From: Candidatus Caldarchaeales archaeon | GTDB taxonomy: Archaea; Thermoproteota; Nitrososphaeria_A; Caldarchaeales; Wolframiiraptoraceae | Assembly (NCBI GenBank): GCA_039630055.1 | Contig: JBCNVN010000028.1 | Span: forward strand, 1-18,954 | Length of the DNA stretch: 18,954 nucleotides | Direction of reading: 5' to 3' | In this document: positions 3,109 through 8,848 of the stretch, piece after piece | Position numbering within the stretch: position 1 is the first letter of the stretch | Layout of the letters: each line of letters opens with the position of its first letter | Position numbers and translations under genes: made by a program | The notes under the pieces: model-generated | Told to the model about the DNA's origin: nothing | The model's input: the letters and a program-made list of their open reading frames with translations, nothing else | Databases searched by the model: none

Positions 3109-3726
3109 CTAGATAGATGAGAACTTCCTCTTTAGCTTTTTAAATATACCTGTAACATAGTGGGTTTGGTCAGTCCTAAACTCTTCATGAGATTCGGGAG
3201 GCTGTATATAATATAAGTCTACCGTCTCCATTCCCTTGATAGTGCTCTCGATAACCTTCCTTCTATGTATTCCTAAATTAACTCTAAGAGGGATGACTTT
3301 TCCCTCTTTATCTATATGGAAGATTTTAAACTTGAGATCTACTAGCTTCCTTGTCTCAGCATATTTTAATGGATCTATTACCATGGCGACAGCCTTTGGG
3401 AACATCATCTGATACCTCTTCTGGGTCTCGATATCTATAGTTGAGAGGAATAGGTCGAAGCCTGGATGTGAATGATACCATCCAACAATACTTAATCCAG
3501 GCCTCTCATGGATAAGCCACTCGTATGTTAAGGCCATGACCTCCTCATCTAGAAGAACGAACGCCGATGATGCTTTCTGGTTTCCAGAGATAGCATCCCA
3601 TATCTCTAGCACATCCTGCCTCTTCTCATATCTTCCAATCAAAAGACCTGCTACCTCTCTCTCCAGATCCATTAATGAATACTTTACAGCTTTTCCTAAA
3701 GCAAGTGGATAGATCCTTACCCTCAA
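3109..3726 (-). CDS. Rpn11-like JAMM/MPN+ metalloprotease (ubiquitin maturase/deubiquitinase)
   Basis: Complete JAMM motif: REVAGLLIG ... VGWYHSHPGFDLFLSTIDIETQ ... AMVIDP. Divergent from the ubiquitin gene; TTG start. Confidence 0.93.
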   Translation of the reverse strand: MRVRIYPLALGKAVKYSLMDLEREVAGLLIGRYEKRQDVLEIWDAISGNQKASSAFVLLDEEVMALTYEWLIHERPGLSIVGWYHSHPGFDLFLSTIDIETQKRYQMMFPKAVAMVIDPLKYAETRKLVDLKFKIFHIDKEGKVIPLRVNLGIHRRKVIESTIKGMETVDLYYIQPPESHEEFRTDQTHYVTGIFKKLKRKFSSI

Positions 3727-3907: not shown

Positions 3908-4168
3908 ATGAAGGTTAAAGTCGTCCCTGCGGTAGGCGGTGGAAGCCCGATAGAATTAGAAGTAATGCCTTCAACTACTGTTGGAGCTATTAGAGCTAAG
4001 GTATGTGCTATGAAGAAGCTTCCCCCAGACACTACTAGACTAACTTTTAGGGGAAGAGCATTGAAAGATACTGAGACACTTCAAGATATTGGAGCACAAG
4101 ATGGAGATAAGCTAGTATTGATAACTAGAACTGTAGGGGGATTTAATTGTGTATGCGGAGCTCCCTGA
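3908..4168 (+). CDS. Eukaryote-like ubiquitin precursor (78-aa mature protein ending in GG plus an 8-aa C-terminal propeptide)
   Basis: Beta-grasp pattern MKVKVV...IELEV.PSTTV..IRAKV......PP...RLTFRGR.L.D.ETL.D......D.L.LITRTVGG followed by FNCVCGAP. The real start is ATG 3908; the ORF-track extension from 3830 runs over the promoter. Confidence 0.93.
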   Translation: MKVKVVPAVGGGSPIELEVMPSTTVGAIRAKVCAMKKLPPDTTRLTFRGRALKDTETLQDIGAQDGDKLVLITRTVGGFNCVCGAP

Positions 4169-4628
4169 GCTCCTATGGTATAAGAGGTTAGCGTTAGAAT
4201 ATAAACTAGTACATGAGCATGAACCTCTCTTCGATATAGTTGATGGAGATTTAACACATTATAAGGGTATAATAATAGGTGGAGGGCTTTATGAAGGAGG
4301 ATATTTTAAAGTAGAGATCCTTATACCTCGTTCTTTCCCATATGCTCCTCCAGAAGTTGTTTGGTGGACACGTATATGGCATCCAAACTTTACCGATGAG
4401 GTTCCTCCAAGAATATGTGAATCAGTATTTAAAGAAGATTGGTCTCCATCCCTTCACATAATAACACTAATAGAAACTCTTAGAAACCTCCTCAATAATC
4501 CTAATCCAGAAGATCCTCTAAATACCATAGCGGCCATGGAGATGAAGTTTAGACCAGATATATTTGAAGCGAGGGTCAGACAGTATATTGATTTATTTGC
4601 TAGACCTGAACAGGCTTTAACCCGTTAA
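4149..4628 (+). CDS. Ubiquitin-conjugating enzyme E2-like
   Basis: KRLALE, YEGG.F, FPY.PP, IWHPNF...ICES (catalytic Cys), WSPS and PNPEDPLN motifs. The GTG start overlaps the ubiquitin propeptide codons by 20 nt. Confidence 0.95.
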   Translation: MYAELPELLWYKRLALEYKLVHEHEPLFDIVDGDLTHYKGIIIGGGLYEGGYFKVEILIPRSFPYAPPEVVWWTRIWHPNFTDEVPPRICESVFKEDWSPSLHIITLIETLRNLLNNPNPEDPLNTIAAMEMKFRPDIFEARVRQYIDLFARPEQALTR

Positions 4629-4688: not shown

Positions 4689-5873
4689 ATGCAGTACTTA
4701 GAGAGATATGAAAGACAGCTTAGAATAGAAGGTTGGAGGCAAGATAAGCTCTCGAACTCTACTGTAATGATAGTTGGTGTTGGTGCAATCGGATGCGAAG
4801 TCGCTAAAAACCTGACTCTAATGGGTATAGGAGAACTTATACTAGTAGATAATGATGTGGTCGAGGTCTCCAATCTGAGTAGGCAGATGCTGTTTACGGA
4901 TAGAGACATTGGTAGACCGAAAAGCTTGGTCGCCAAAGAAAAACTTGAAGAGATGAATCCCTTTGTAAAGATTAGAGAGTACTATGAGGATGTAAGGAAA
5001 CTAGATAACAACATATTTGAAGAGGCCGATTTAATCTGCTCATGTTTAGACAACTGGCCCGTAAGAAGATGGATTAACTCCATGGCCGTAGAACTAGATA
5101 TCCCATTGATCGATGCTGCCATGGATGGATTATACGCCAATCTGCAAGTTGTAATACCTCGTAAGACCGCGTGTTTAGAATGTCATGGAGAGGATCTTAT
5201 CCCTAAAGATGTACAATTAGCGGAGTGTACTCTTAGGAGGAGGAAACCTGAAGATCTAAAGAAAGATCTAGAAGAACAGAATATAATCGTGGATCTAGAA
5301 TTGGTTAAGAAACTATTCGAGATAGGGATAAAGACATCCTTCGATATAAAATACTCTCAATCTCATATTCTTGATAAGATAGACGAAGAGACTAGGGAGA
5401 AGATTAGAGAGATTCAAGGATTACTTAAACCTAGGATGCCTGCATTACAAAGTGTTGCAGCTACAATATCTGGATTAACCACTACAGAGCTTGTGAAGAT
5501 ACTTCATGGAGAGGCTCTCGGAAAGATCTGGAAGGGGATAATAGTATATGATGGATATTCATCGAGATTTACTAGGGTGAGATTAGAAAGAAAAGAAGAA
5601 TGTTTTGTCTGTGGAGATTATGTTAAGAGCGAAGGAGTAGAGATAAGTGCTAGCCTAGATGAGAAAGTAATAGACCTGAAGAAGAAGATTGCAGAGAAAT
5701 TCAGTCTTCCAGATCCCGAGATACTCTATAAGAAATGGAGGTTAAATGATGACCAAGTGCTTAGAGAGATAGGTATAAGAGATCATGACATATTATATGT
5801 AGAGACTAGTAGGAGATTTACACCATTGACTCTTAAACTGGTCTTAATAGATTCAGAGCCTGATAAGGTCTAG
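4689..5873 (+). CDS. Ubiquitin-activating enzyme E1-like with C-terminal ubiquitin-fold domain
   Basis: RYERQ, GVGAIG, VDND.VE.SNL.RQ, CLDN...R, Zn pairs CLEC and CFVC, putative catalytic Cys in LAECT, and a C-terminal beta-grasp-like segment (V.DLKKKIA...LNDDQVLREIGIRDHDILYV). Confidence 0.93.
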   Translation: MQYLERYERQLRIEGWRQDKLSNSTVMIVGVGAIGCEVAKNLTLMGIGELILVDNDVVEVSNLSRQMLFTDRDIGRPKSLVAKEKLEEMNPFVKIREYYEDVRKLDNNIFEEADLICSCLDNWPVRRWINSMAVELDIPLIDAAMDGLYANLQVVIPRKTACLECHGEDLIPKDVQLAECTLRRRKPEDLKKDLEEQNIIVDLELVKKLFEIGIKTSFDIKYSQSHILDKIDEETREKIREIQGLLKPRMPALQSVAATISGLTTTELVKILHGEALGKIWKGIIVYDGYSSRFTRVRLERKEECFVCGDYVKSEGVEISASLDEKVIDLKKKIAEKFSLPDPEILYKKWRLNDDQVLREIGIRDHDILYVETSRRFTPLTLKLVLIDSEPDKV

Positions 5874-5920: not shown

Positions 5921-6181
5921 ATGGAGAAGAGGATTAGGGTAGGTCGACCAATAAGTGGTGGTTTTTGGGATCCATGGGCTGTTGAAGAAGTTAGGAAGTC
6001 CACTCCTTTACCTAAGCTTGAAGCTAAACGTATATGTGTTATCTGTTTATCGGAGATTAGTGAAGGGGCATCTATCATCGAGTGCCCATACTGTAGTGCA
6101 ATAGGTCATGAAAACTGTTTTGAAGACTGGGTAACACTTAAAGGTAAATGCCCCCTCTGCCGAAGAGCAATAACACTCTAG
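5921..6181 (+). CDS. Small RING finger protein (soluble E3 ligase, srfp-like)
   Basis: C-x2-C-x12-C-x2-C-x4-H-x2-C-x3-W-x6-C-P-x-C-R; last gene of the Ub-E2-E1 run. Confidence 0.9.
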   Translation: MEKRIRVGRPISGGFWDPWAVEEVRKSTPLPKLEAKRICVICLSEISEGASIIECPYCSAIGHENCFEDWVTLKGKCPLCRRAITL

Positions 6182-6315: not shown

Positions 6316-6705
6316 TTGACAGATTTTTCAAAGGAGGAGAAGGAGCCTAGAAAATTCGAGATAGAGATTATTCCCGAATACCTTGATACTCCAAGTGGTA
6401 AAAAGGTTGCAACATTTAATTTTGCGATGGGTGTAGCTAAAGCTCTAGAGATTATAGATGAGGCACAACTAGAATTAGAGCAGAGAGTAGAAAGGTTGGA
6501 GAGGGGAGAGAACCTTACCAAGTTACTTGAAAGATTTAATGGCTTTGAAGCTAGAATAGCCAATATAGAGAAGACTTTAACGGGTTTAGAGAAAAACCTG
6601 CAGAACGATATTGAAGATCTATCAGATAAACTCTCAGCATTGATTGATGCTTTCCACGAGCTAGCTGAGAGGGTCCAGAGAATGGAGGAGGCTCTTAAGG
6701 GTTAA
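6316..6705 (+). CDS. Hypothetical protein with a short N-terminal beta-like region and a coiled coil
   Basis: 129-aa ORF with SD-like AGGGTGGGA before the TTG; heptad-rich, E/K/L-rich C-terminal two-thirds. Confidence 0.75.
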   Translation: MTDFSKEEKEPRKFEIEIIPEYLDTPSGKKVATFNFAMGVAKALEIIDEAQLELEQRVERLERGENLTKLLERFNGFEARIANIEKTLTGLEKNLQNDIEDLSDKLSALIDAFHELAERVQRMEEALKG

Positions 6706-7537
6706 GGTAAGCCCTCCTCAATTCGGTTATAAGCCCCTCCAATCTAGCTCTCTTATCTTCCAGCTCTCTTATCTCGGTTTCAAGCCTTCTCTTCTTCTCA
6801 ATCAAAGCATTTATCTCTCCCCTCAACTGGATAACTTTCTTCTCTGCCTCTTCAACCGCCCCCTCCCTCTCTCGAAGCCTAGCTAAAGAATCTTTAAGTT
6901 CAGCCTCCCTCCTAACCAGTCTCTCAAGTCTAATCTCTCTAAGCTTAAAGTCTCTCATAATTTCTTTAACAACCTCTTCGATCCTATTCTTTGCCTCTTC
7001 TAATCCGGAAAGATATTTTTGAGATAAATCAGCGATCTTTTGTTCAAGTTCTCTCTTCTTTTCTTCAAGGGTTCTCACTTCTTCCTCCCTTAAGTTTAGT
7101 TGTCTCTCTTTAAACTCAAGGTCTTCTCTCCATCTCTTCATCTCTTCTTTCATAGTCTCTAGCTCAGTCTTTTCTTTAAGGAGCTGATTTATTTCTTGTT
7201 TAATATTCTCTCTCTCTTTAGTCAATGCTTCTACTATATCCTTTATTCCTTCTTGAACAGATAAGAGCATATTTTCATAGTATCTCACTATGGTAATTTC
7301 TTCAGATACTTTCTCAAGCTTTTCTATAAATGGCTTAAGTTTGTCTTCAAGAGCTGAAGGAAAAGCTGAGAAGGTGGAGAGAAGCGTGATCATTTTATCT
7401 ATATCTCTACCAAGATTCTCATAAGTTCTCTCAATATGGTTAATCACATCAGATTTAAAATCAGATAAATCTCTAGTGATCTTCTGTTCAAGCTCTTCAA
7501 CCCATCTCTCTTTCTTGGATGAAGAAAATATGCTCAT
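6695..7537 (-). CDS. Hypothetical long coiled-coil protein
   Basis: 280-aa ORF, nearly continuous E/K/R/L heptads. A TATA-like TTTTTTATA lies at 7574-7566, about 30 nt upstream. The 3' end overlaps the convergent gene by 11 nt. Confidence 0.8.
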   Translation of the reverse strand: MSIFSSSKKERWVEELEQKITRDLSDFKSDVINHIERTYENLGRDIDKMITLLSTFSAFPSALEDKLKPFIEKLEKVSEEITIVRYYENMLLSVQEGIKDIVEALTKERENIKQEINQLLKEKTELETMKEEMKRWREDLEFKERQLNLREEEVRTLEEKKRELEQKIADLSQKYLSGLEEAKNRIEEVVKEIMRDFKLREIRLERLVRREAELKDSLARLREREGAVEEAEKKVIQLRGEINALIEKKRRLETEIRELEDKRARLEGLITELRRAYLNP

Positions 7538-7643
7538 ATCTTCTCTATAGAGTTGAGAGTAGGAGTATAAAAAATATTTCTTTCATCAATAATGAGAATA
7601 TTTATAAAAGAGGATAAAGGCATGTCTTAAGAGGCGTATAAAC

Positions 7644-8375
7644 TTGATCGTAACACATGAAGAAGTTGCCTCAAGATTTTTTAAGATAGGTTCTGGTGGA
7701 GCGGTAGTTGGAGCAGTACACATTCTAACCTTGCTGCTCGGATGGTATATTGAAACCGATAGTGGAGAGGTCATTACACTCGCAGGATACAATTTCATAG
7801 AATCATTCATTCTATCCACTATAGGGGGGATAGTGGCTGGAGTGAGCTTGTTGATTGCATACCAAGTTAAGAAATTAAATATTATGAAAGCTGTTATCGG
7901 AGGGCTAATAGTAGGTGGAGGATTATTTACCTTCTTCTCCCCAATATACATATACTTTTTCAAGATCCTCGCATTTAACCTCCGAGGTTATCCAGACCTC
8001 GGATTTTTCATAGCTATTATCACCGCTATAATCCAGCTTGGAATAGGGATACTCGTTCTCCTAACCCCACTGAAGGGAGAATTAATAGTTGCAGAAGAAG
8101 TAGCAGCCGTGGAGAGGTATCCTACATCTTCACCTCTTGAGGATATAGATATAGGTCTTCCTACGACTAGAGAAACTCGTAGACCAAGTGTGGCCCGCAT
8201 AGTCCCTGCAGAAGATGTAGAAGAAGGCGTATGCACTATATGTTACTACTCTTTAACTTATGAGAATGCTGTTAGATGTAGTTCATGTGGAGCTCTTTTC
8301 CATAGAGATTGTATAGATGCATGGGTGAGCTTAAACCGTATCTGTCCAAGCTGTAAGGCATCTATACGTGGCTAA
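7644..8375 (+). CDS. Four-transmembrane protein with C-terminal C4HC3 RING domain (putative membrane-anchored E3 ligase)
   Basis: Hydrophobic stretches at approx. aa 15-35, 51-73, 80-106 and 119-141, a polar linker, then CTIC-x11-CSSC-x4-H-x2-C-x3-W-x6-CPSC at aa 197-237. TATA-like TTTATAAAA at 7601 and GAGG at 7631 precede the TTG. Confidence 0.85.
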   Translation: MIVTHEEVASRFFKIGSGGAVVGAVHILTLLLGWYIETDSGEVITLAGYNFIESFILSTIGGIVAGVSLLIAYQVKKLNIMKAVIGGLIVGGGLFTFFSPIYIYFFKILAFNLRGYPDLGFFIAIITAIIQLGIGILVLLTPLKGELIVAEEVAAVERYPTSSPLEDIDIGLPTTRETRRPSVARIVPAEDVEEGVCTICYYSLTYENAVRCSSCGALFHRDCIDAWVSLNRICPSCKASIRG

Positions 8376-8848
8376 GAAAAGCTCTCCCTAATGAAAGATC
8401 CTAGATAGTATGCTGATACAATAACTATGGTAGTTAGTATTAGGTGCTCTACAATTATCTTGATCTCCCTCCTGTTCTGTTTTTTGGCCATATAATAACT
8501 GAAGAACGATATTAATCCAAATCCCCATATTATGCTTGCGTAAGTGGTATAGATCGGGTCAAGCAACAACACAGGTACTAAAAAGCTGAGCGTAAAGACT
8601 AGTTTGGAGAATAGAGTAGATATTGTGGCCTCTATTATCTCTATACTTGTATGCTCGCCTTCAGCCTCTTCTGAAACATGGATCCCCATAGCATCTGAGA
8701 GAGAGTCTGCGAGGGCTAGAATAAGTATTCCCGTAACTACTGCAGGCTTAGACTGGGTGCCAGATTCTAAACCAATGATTATACCTAGAGTAGTTATGAC
8801 TCCTGAGGTCAAGCCGAATCCCATACCTTTGGAGAATGTTATTCTCAC
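8372..8848 (-). CDS. VIT1/CCC1-like membrane protein (putative Fe/Mn transporter)
   Basis: FGLTSGVITTLGIIIG and G.....LADSLSDAMG.HVSE..E resemble VIT family TM1/TM2; about 5 hydrophobic segments; GTG start. Confidence 0.7.
   Translation of the reverse strand: MRITFSKGMGFGLTSGVITTLGIIIGLESGTQSKPAVVTGILILALADSLSDAMGIHVSEEAEGEHTSIEIIEATISTLFSKLVFTLSFLVPVLLLDPIYTTYASIIWGFGLISFFSYYMAKKQNRREIKIIVEHLILTTIVIVSAYYLGSFIRESFS

Follow-up and report, generated by a model that had tools for sequence, protein, structure and literature searches.

The stretch of DNA analysed here, referred to as the window, comprises 18,954 nucleotides (contig JBCNVN010000028.1 of assembly GCA_039630055.1) from a Candidatus Caldarchaeales archaeon. 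Its host is an uncultured hot-spring member of the Aigarchaeota (GTDB Caldarchaeales) with a genome of 1.54 Mb that is 92% complete. Downstream of a set of ubiquitin-system genes, the window carries a gene (7644..8375, + strand, TTG start) encoding a 243-aa protein that combines transmembrane (TM) helices with a RING finger. We term this protein TM-RING and consider it here as a candidate membrane-anchored ubiquitin ligase (E3); its orthologue in Caldiarchaeum subterraneum is CSUB_C1480. An initial annotation of the open reading frame had described four TM helices followed by a linker (about 55 aa) and, at the C-terminus, a RING, and this observation is confirmed, since every detail listed was found in the window. 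The start position is common to TTG, GTG and ATG starts across 22 loci, and full-length relatives recovered by word-indexed protein search (n = 14) measure 227-243 aa.

Profile searches placed a RING finger at residues 197-238 (8232..8357, +), which matched the Pfam model zf-RING_2 (PF13639) with 39.1 bits (cut-off 27.3, E 8.9e-10) and scored 42.7 bits in a six-frame search of the genome. Its eight zinc ligands are C197, C200, C212, C215, H220, C223, C234 and C237. The resulting spacing, C-x2-C-x12-C-x2-C-x4-H-x2-C-x11-C-x2-C, is the same in the soluble small RING finger protein (srfp; 5921..6181, +; zf-RING_2 43.2 bits), as is a W-V-[ST]-L...C-P-x-C stretch, both of which the initial annotation had read correctly. 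It had also put the soluble RING about 1.5 kb upstream, and the srfp gene indeed ends 1.46 kb before TM-RING. Comparison of the two RINGs (hhalign probability 99.2, E 2e-19) identified them as paralogues.

Among PDB sequences, the TM-RING finger yielded 31 matches at E <= 0.01, all of them E3 ligases and none a PHD finger. Arkadia ranked first (2e-10), followed by RNF165 and RNF38, and RLIM and ZNRF1 were also among the matches. The AlphaFold2 model of the RING alone (predicted local distance difference test, pLDDT, 93.6) contains a helix at residues 221-231 between ligands 6 and 7, the element that in RINGs forms the groove for the ubiquitin-conjugating enzyme (E2).

Active RING E3s typically present a hydrophobic residue after Cys1, a Trp in the central helix, a Pro after Cys7 and a basic residue after Cys8. 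The window's TM-RING carries I199, W227, P235 and K238 at these positions, and its srfp has Arg at the last of them. All four residues highlighted by the initial annotation, including the linchpin Lys, are thus present in the window, but their conservation is uneven. In 28/28 TM-RING sequences the eight zinc ligands do not vary, nor do Ile199 and Pro235, and the Ile and the Pro hold in all families; the Lys is not family-conserved, and the Trp is Tyr in Caldarchaeum. By family, the helix and post-Cys8 residues of TM-RING are Trp and Lys in f1 (the window's family), Tyr and Gly or Asn in f2 (Caldarchaeum), Trp and Gly in f3, and Trp and Asn or Lys in f4. The srfp of f1, f2 and f4 shows Ile or Val, Trp, Pro and Arg or Lys in the same four positions (Gly at the last in three f1 loci). 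In the srfp of f3, the E2-binding-type Ile is replaced by Ala or Val and the Trp by Leu, with Pro and Arg or Lys retained. Because the contact residues differ in this way, the better-looking E2 binder is TM-RING in f3 and srfp in f2.

The N-terminal part of the protein is predicted to form a four-helix membrane domain. Kyte-Doolittle hydropathy (19-residue window) produced four peaks above 1.6, namely 1.77 (residues 15-33), 2.10 (54-72), 1.84 (80-98) and 2.75 (122-140). AlphaFold2, supplied with a 28-sequence alignment, modelled helices at 5-31, 52-74, 78-108 and 119-140, with pLDDT mostly >90 across the block, a short beta-hairpin in loop 1 and one strand in loop 3. The same model leaves residues 147-180 disordered (pLDDT <50) and folds residues 181-243 into a C-terminal domain. 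From hydropathy and model together, we assigned TM1 to residues 15-35 (7686..7748), TM2 to 51-73 (7794..7862), TM3 to 83-106 (7890..7961) and TM4 to 119-141 (7998..8066). A flexible linker rich in P, S, T, E and R follows (residues 142-186; 8067..8201), delimited by low pLDDT and low column identity; all these features lie on the + strand.

Every helix contains invariant positions across the 28 sequences: the motif H26-x-L-T-L-L-L-x-W-Y in TM1, S58, G61, G62, A65 and G66 in TM2, G92, G93, S99, P100 and Y102 in TM3, and G120, F122 and G135 in TM4. R11, W34, Y35 and G48 are likewise invariant in the membrane domain. Mean column identity was highest in TM1 (0.79), intermediate in TM2-4 (0.61-0.70) and the RING (0.72), and lowest in the linker (0.38). 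The membrane domain is therefore conserved as strongly as the RING, and it is probably more than an anchor, recognising a partner or substrate or driving oligomerisation. Several small-xxx-small motifs suggest tight helix packing.

Charge distribution favours an N-in/C-in topology. Following the positive-inside rule, counts of Lys and Arg pointed to this orientation in 28/28 family members, with a mean of 6.75 for the N-terminus, the second loop and the C-flank taken together versus 2.29 for the first and third loops. The predicted orientation agrees with the initial annotation and would place the RING in the cytoplasm, on the same side as the E2.

Searches for relatives of the membrane domain returned chiefly the family itself. 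Residues 1-190 had no Pfam match. A feature search of the ESM Atlas with residues 1-150 gave a best score of 0.77, which is below the meaningful level. The corresponding structure search recovered the protein's own family, as two Nitrososphaerota clusters with zf-RING_2 in 100% of members, together with generic bacterial four-helix membrane proteins (DUF4293, Trp_oprn_chp). As modelled, the fold resembles tetraspans of the claudin/TARP type and is unlike Hrd1. A rhomboid- or Derlin-like reading of the conserved His and Ser was considered and dropped, as the domain has only four helices and no family match.

To define the distribution of the membrane domain, we built a profile from residues 1-150 of 21 sequences. 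The domain occurs in 72/76 species genomes of the class (Caldarchaeales), as one copy each and in all 15 genera; among high-quality genomes the count is 42/43. None of 341 genomes sampled across the phylum from 57 other families contained it. Against 1.84 billion representative proteins, the profile gave only 15 matches. In 12 of these, a zf-RING_2 domain above cut-off follows at the C-terminus; of the other three, two resemble fragments produced by frame shifts and the third is a repeat protein matched spuriously. On this outcome, the membrane domain has no known occurrence outside its fusion to this RING.

The E2 family (UQ_con) was detected in 75/76 class genomes. The sole genome without it is 59% complete and also lacks TM-RING, so that 72/72 carriers have an E2. 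This distribution, together with the absence of the domain from the genomes sampled outside the class, runs counter to the possibility, raised in the initial annotation, that such a protein is common in archaea without E2s. As a separate observation, five of the seven genomes of genus g11 (G022, G024, G025, G026, G028) contain a second, weak UQ_con match of 31-33 bits, located in open frames of 274-288 aa (e.g., G022:C2:193699-193947), which could be an E2-variant or UEV-like (ubiquitin E2 variant-like) protein.

The genes upstream of TM-RING include the known eukaryote-like ubiquitin cluster. An Rpn11-like JAMM isopeptidase gene (3109..3726, -; PF01398 63.5 bits) diverges from an operon that opens with pro-ubiquitin (3908..4168, +; PF00240 50.8 bits). 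The likely start of the latter is Met27 of the listed open reading frame, judging from the extent of tblastn matches. Its Gly-Gly is followed by an 8-residue tail, in agreement with the pro-ubiquitin described for C. subterraneum, and the end of the gene overlaps the E2 start by 20 bases. The E2 (UQ_con; 4149..4628, +; PF00179 96.4 bits) is the only one in the genome, and an E1-like enzyme (ThiF; 4689..5873, +; PF00899 E 3.5e-62) comes next, its C-terminus bearing a weak ubiquitin-like match below cut-off (PF00240 E 8e-4).

Two coiled-coil proteins lie between srfp and TM-RING. CC129 (129 aa; 6316..6705, +) follows srfp at a position conserved in f1-f4 loci, and has an invariant short T-P-x-G motif near its N-terminus ahead of the coiled coil. 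CC280 (280 aa; 6695..7537, -) is divergent from TM-RING, contains an invariant F-[KR]-x-R-E motif and occurs in 71/76 class genomes; like CC129, it is conserved in each of the four families. It is the adjacent divergent neighbour of TM-RING in 56/72 carriers, with a gap typically of 107-190 bp. For neither protein could a family be assigned: Pfam, NCBIfam and PDB-profile searches produced nothing beyond hits below threshold and coiled-coil matches of a generic sort (for instance SMC, Rad50, spike heptad repeats and designed coiled coils), among which a match to ESCRT-I Srn2 (E 2.6e-4) also has to be counted. NCBIfam also has no model for TM-RING or srfp.

Comparison of species-representative genomes yielded 23 TM-RING loci in Geocrenenecus, Wolframiiraptor, Caldarchaeum and other relatives, including a metagenome-assembled genome of C. 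subterraneum. The order JAMM (reverse) / Ub-E2-E1-srfp-CC129 / CC280 (reverse) / TM-RING-GlyRS (glycyl-tRNA synthetase) was conserved in all 15 of these loci that bear an E2, as well as in both f4 loci compared by tblastn. In 39/72 carriers, TM-RING and the E2 share a strand and are 3.1-5.1 kb apart, distributed as 23/31 in f1, 13/18 in f2, 3/4 in f4 and 0/19 in f3. In the f1, f2 and f4 genomes without this linkage, the two genes are on different contigs.

Family f3 reveals which part of the cluster stays together when it splits. The segment srfp-CC129-CC280-TM-RING-GlyRS is intact in 3/4 f3 TM-RING loci, with Ub-E2-E1 located elsewhere; in the fourth (genus g11), only TM-RING-GlyRS remain together. 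Both f3 E2 loci examined lack srfp, and in one of them (L030) JAMM sits beside Ub-E2-E1. The f3 srfp genes found with the TM-RING block, far from Ub-E2-E1, map to L026 9687-9875 (-), L028 9697-9894 (-) and L029 9909-10046 (-). Given this split, the unit kept by evolution is the two RINGs plus the two coiled-coil proteins, not TM-RING plus the E2.

The spacer between CC280 and TM-RING (7538-7643, 106 bp) contains a pair of invariant TATA-like boxes that are separated by about 30 bp and face in opposite directions. One, TTATAAAA (7602..7609, +), lies 35-42 nt upstream of the TM-RING start, and its TTATAA core (7602-7607) is invariant in 8/8 aligned intergenic regions. The other (7566..7573, -), which reads TATAAAAA on the + strand, faces CC280 and is invariant in the same 8/8 regions. 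Both are putative promoters, and the pairing would allow joint control of CC280 and TM-RING. A search of sequencing runs for expression data listed three DNA entries from a single study and no RNA entry, a result that is neutral as to expression.

Two further features flank the gene. The gene for a 158-aa VIT1-like membrane protein (8372-8848, -; 26.8 bits, just short of the cut-off of 28.1) is convergent with TM-RING, with a 4-base overlap at the TM-RING stop codon; of the loci compared by tblastn, only the closest relative, L007, contained a match to it. The GlyRS gene beside TM-RING appears split in L003 (1336-3308), L005 (6789-12071) and L014 (1093-5080), with a second complete GlyRS, only about 55% identical, between or beside the pieces. 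This arrangement may reflect an insertion that carried its own GlyRS.

The genome encodes exactly one E2 (UQ_con) and exactly two zf-RING_2 matches, and both RINGs lie within the window. Modelling of the E2 with TM-RING residues 181-243 gave a complex score of 0.57 (runs 0.49, 0.58 and 0.57), and the best of three controls scored 0.00. The runs agree in >=95% of contacts, and partner pLDDT is >=85. In calibration, the mark applied was reached by 58/80 solved complexes and 2/110 mismatched pairs; with scores of <=0.60, only 7 of the 80 solved complexes reached it, as did both of the passing mismatches. Because RING-E2 complexes are a textbook pair, solved many times, passing the mark indicates likeness at most, and the model lends the pairing weak backing.

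The gene itself is already on record. CSUB_C1480 (BAJ51331.1; UniProt E6N8K1) lies three genes after srfp (CSUB_C1477) and falls in one 90% cluster with the TM-RING orthologue of locus L023. It appears in databases as "hypothetical protein", "RING-type domain-containing protein", "RING-H2 finger protein" and "RING finger protein". The initial annotation, which credited the described Caldiarchaeum operon with just one RING, a soluble one, must accordingly be corrected, as C. subterraneum itself encodes the second RING.

In print, the available text of Nunoura 2011 (PMC3082918) describes CSUB_C1473-C1477 only, and its main text contains neither "transmembrane" nor "CSUB_C1480". The available text of Hennell James 2017 (PMC5654768) likewise lacks "transmembrane" and uses "membrane" in unrelated senses only. 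The term "transmembrane" is also absent from Grau-Bove 2015, where the zf-RING_2 genes of aigarchaeotes are counted, and Hua 2018 lists "E3-like" proteins only. A full-text search found nothing under CSUB_C1478, CSUB_C1479, CSUB_C1480 or E6N8K1. No description of TM-RING was found in the literature searched, although Burroughs, Iyer and Aravind 2011 (PMC5938088) or the supplements of Hennell James 2017 and Fuchs 2018 may mention the gene. The gene, its RING and the existence of a second RING are thus in databases or print already; the membrane anchor, its near universality in the class and the four-gene block are not described in the literature searched.

Collectively, these data lead us to favour, with modest confidence, the view that TM-RING is a membrane-anchored RING E3 using the single E2, and the likeliest candidate for a second E3 of the Aigarchaeota ubiquitin system. 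The four helices would form a compact membrane bundle with both ends in the cytoplasm, and a flexible tether of about 45-55 residues would carry the RING finger. The RING would recruit the ubiquitin-charged E2 and promote the transfer of ubiquitin onto proteins that are embedded in the membrane or close to it. TM-RING probably acts as part of an "E3 block" of four conserved genes, namely srfp, CC129, CC280 and TM-RING. The initial annotation had likewise proposed a second E3 using the same E2. Of that proposal, the genuine RING, its contact residues and the single E2 stand, while E2 binding and ligase activity are predictions backed by a weak complex model.

Several observations weigh against this view. 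The finger departs from the canonical RING-H2 arrangement (C3H2C3): Cys212, an extra Cys three residues upstream of Cys215, produces a C4HC3 order, and the His at ligand 4 of Arkadia aligns with Ala217, so that a test for His at ligands 4 and 5 failed. The stretch C-x2-C-x4-H-x2-C corresponds to PHD spacing, and the Pfam PHD model (PF00628) scores 16.6 bits on the finger, under its cut-off of 24. Since the post-Cys8 residue varies and Trp227 is Tyr in Caldarchaeum, some orthologues may be weak or inactive E2 activators. Charge counts are the sole basis of the topology assignment, and the E2 complex model is weak. In f3, TM-RING is unlinked from the E2 in 19/19 genomes, and the fact that it neighbours CC280 and GlyRS could simply reflect an inherited order of genes that have no function in common.

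The C4HC3 order is nevertheless compatible with ligase activity, because srfp shares the pattern (available text of Nunoura 2011, PMC3082918) and, according to the available text of Hennell James 2017 (PMC5654768), the C. subterraneum protein was reconstituted with E1 and E2 in a working in vitro ubiquitylation cascade.

Among the alternatives, the one that survives best, though we judge it unlikely, is a non-catalytic role in which TM-RING, partnered with srfp or the coiled-coil proteins, keeps the active ligase tethered to the membrane. In eukaryotic RING heterodimers, one RING (BARD1, BMI1) supports the other. The two archaeal RINGs are paralogous and encoded together, even in the three f3 loci of four that keep both. 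Their family-specific signatures are complementary, with Tyr plus Gly or Asn in the f2 TM-RING facing Trp plus Arg in srfp and, in f3, Ala or Val plus Leu in srfp facing Ile plus Trp in TM-RING; this complementarity is the main support for a heterodimer. In f1, the window's own family, however, the signature is complete in both RINGs. A dimerisation element was not identified, and in f3 the active partner would have to be TM-RING.

We regard as improbable a second alternative, that the finger takes no part in ubiquitylation and serves as a binding module, PHD-like or otherwise, carried by a lineage-specific tetraspan, with operon proximity simply inherited. The PHD-like spacing of the finger, sub-threshold matches to PHD, C1 and zinc-ribbon models, the broken E2 link in f3 and the equally conserved adjacency to GlyRS, which has no obvious functional meaning, are all consistent with this idea. 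The finger is nonetheless far closer in sequence to RING-H2 ligases than to PHD fingers, its model contains the central helix, and the Ile and Pro are invariant. Its paralogue with the same ligand pattern filled the E3 role when the cascade was reconstituted in vitro, TM-RING was never found in a genome without an E2, and upon the cluster split it stays with srfp instead of moving at random.

It is similarly doubtful that TM-RING is a signal-responsive ligase or receptor in which outer-half invariant residues and the external beta-sheet would sense an external or lipid cue and switch the RING. In its favour, the predicted topology would put H26, T29, W34, Y35, G48, S58, G61, G62, S99, P100, Y102, G120 and F122 near the outer ends of the four helices or within loop 1, and no segment is better conserved than TM1. 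In addition, the modelled fold is similar to that of claudin/TARP-type tetraspans, whose action depends on external loops and on lateral contacts. Against it, many of the invariant residues are Gly, Ser or Pro and perhaps serve only helix packing, and the external loops, of about 15 and 12 residues, are very short.

Returning to the membrane-anchored E3, a more far-reaching version can be entertained only tentatively, as we think it rather less likely to hold than to fail. The in vivo ligase might be a four-protein machine at the membrane, composed of srfp, the two coiled-coil proteins and the tetraspan RING, whose membrane domain selects membrane or envelope proteins. Such a prokaryotic pathway for the ubiquitylation of membrane proteins would have arisen independently of, or before, eukaryotic ligases of the ERAD (endoplasmic-reticulum-associated degradation) or MARCH type.

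The Caldiarchaeum cascade is the reference model for the origin of eukaryotic ubiquitylation, and work on it has dealt with four soluble proteins together with Rpn11. Our analysis suggests, short of proof, that protein tagging by this minimal archaeal system may extend to the cell membrane. If so, a nearly universal single-copy membrane RING, encoded alongside srfp and the two coiled-coil proteins, would place part of the system's work there, and tethering a RING to a membrane would not be a eukaryotic invention. Furthermore, TM-RING, CC129 and CC280 are three additional proteins that can be added to an existing, working in vitro assay, and the question of what archaeal ubiquitin does becomes more testable.

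Among known systems, the closest counterpart is srfp itself, with which TM-RING shares paralogous RINGs, C4HC3 order and spacing, the Ile, Trp and Pro positions, the gene neighbourhood and the single E2. The srfp protein is soluble, about 75-100 aa long and tested in vitro, whereas TM-RING adds a four-helix domain, a tether and its own promoter-like element.

Eukaryotic membrane ligases such as Hrd1/synoviolin, gp78/AMFR, RNF13, ZNRF3 and plant ATL/EL5 follow the same logic of a membrane anchor with a cytoplasmic RING, and the TM-RING finger matched the PDB sequences of AMFR/gp78 (4e-7), EL5 (3.8e-6), synoviolin/Hrd1 (3.5e-5) and RNF13 (7.7e-5). Unlike these RING-H2 proteins, it uses a Cys at a shifted position as fourth ligand instead of His, and its membrane domain is unrelated to theirs by sequence. 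A membrane domain of the Hrd1/gp78 type found no support, given the lack of a Pfam match, the restriction of the domain to this architecture and its tetraspan structural neighbours. No Derlin, Hrd3 or Cdc48-recruiting partner was identified, and nothing points to retrotranslocation. The minimal ERAD pathway proposed in the initial annotation is consequently reduced to an analogy of layout, as the membrane domain has no sequence relative elsewhere and a claudin-like modelled fold.

The MARCH comparison made there fares similarly. MARCH and viral K3 proteins (RING-CH) share the C4HC3 order and a multi-pass layout with a cytoplasmic finger; their spacing across ligands 3-4-5 differs from that of TM-RING, and in MARCH the finger is N-terminal, whereas in TM-RING it is C-terminal. 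The likeness fails at family level because RINGv (PF12906) gave no match to TM-RING at E <= 0.1; the best solved relatives are of the RING-H2 type, and K3 reached only E 5e-3, weaker than 29 RING-H2-type matches. PHD fingers, for their part, share the C4HC3 order and consensus spacing and differ from the TM-RING model in its RING-type helix between ligands 6 and 7. For the membrane domain, the modelled fold finds its nearest resemblance in the claudin, PMP22, TARP and MP20 tetraspans. Taken together, these comparisons are best accommodated by a putative RING E3 on a lineage-specific tetraspan anchor, which would resemble ERAD and MARCH ligases by analogy of layout, not by homology or mechanism.

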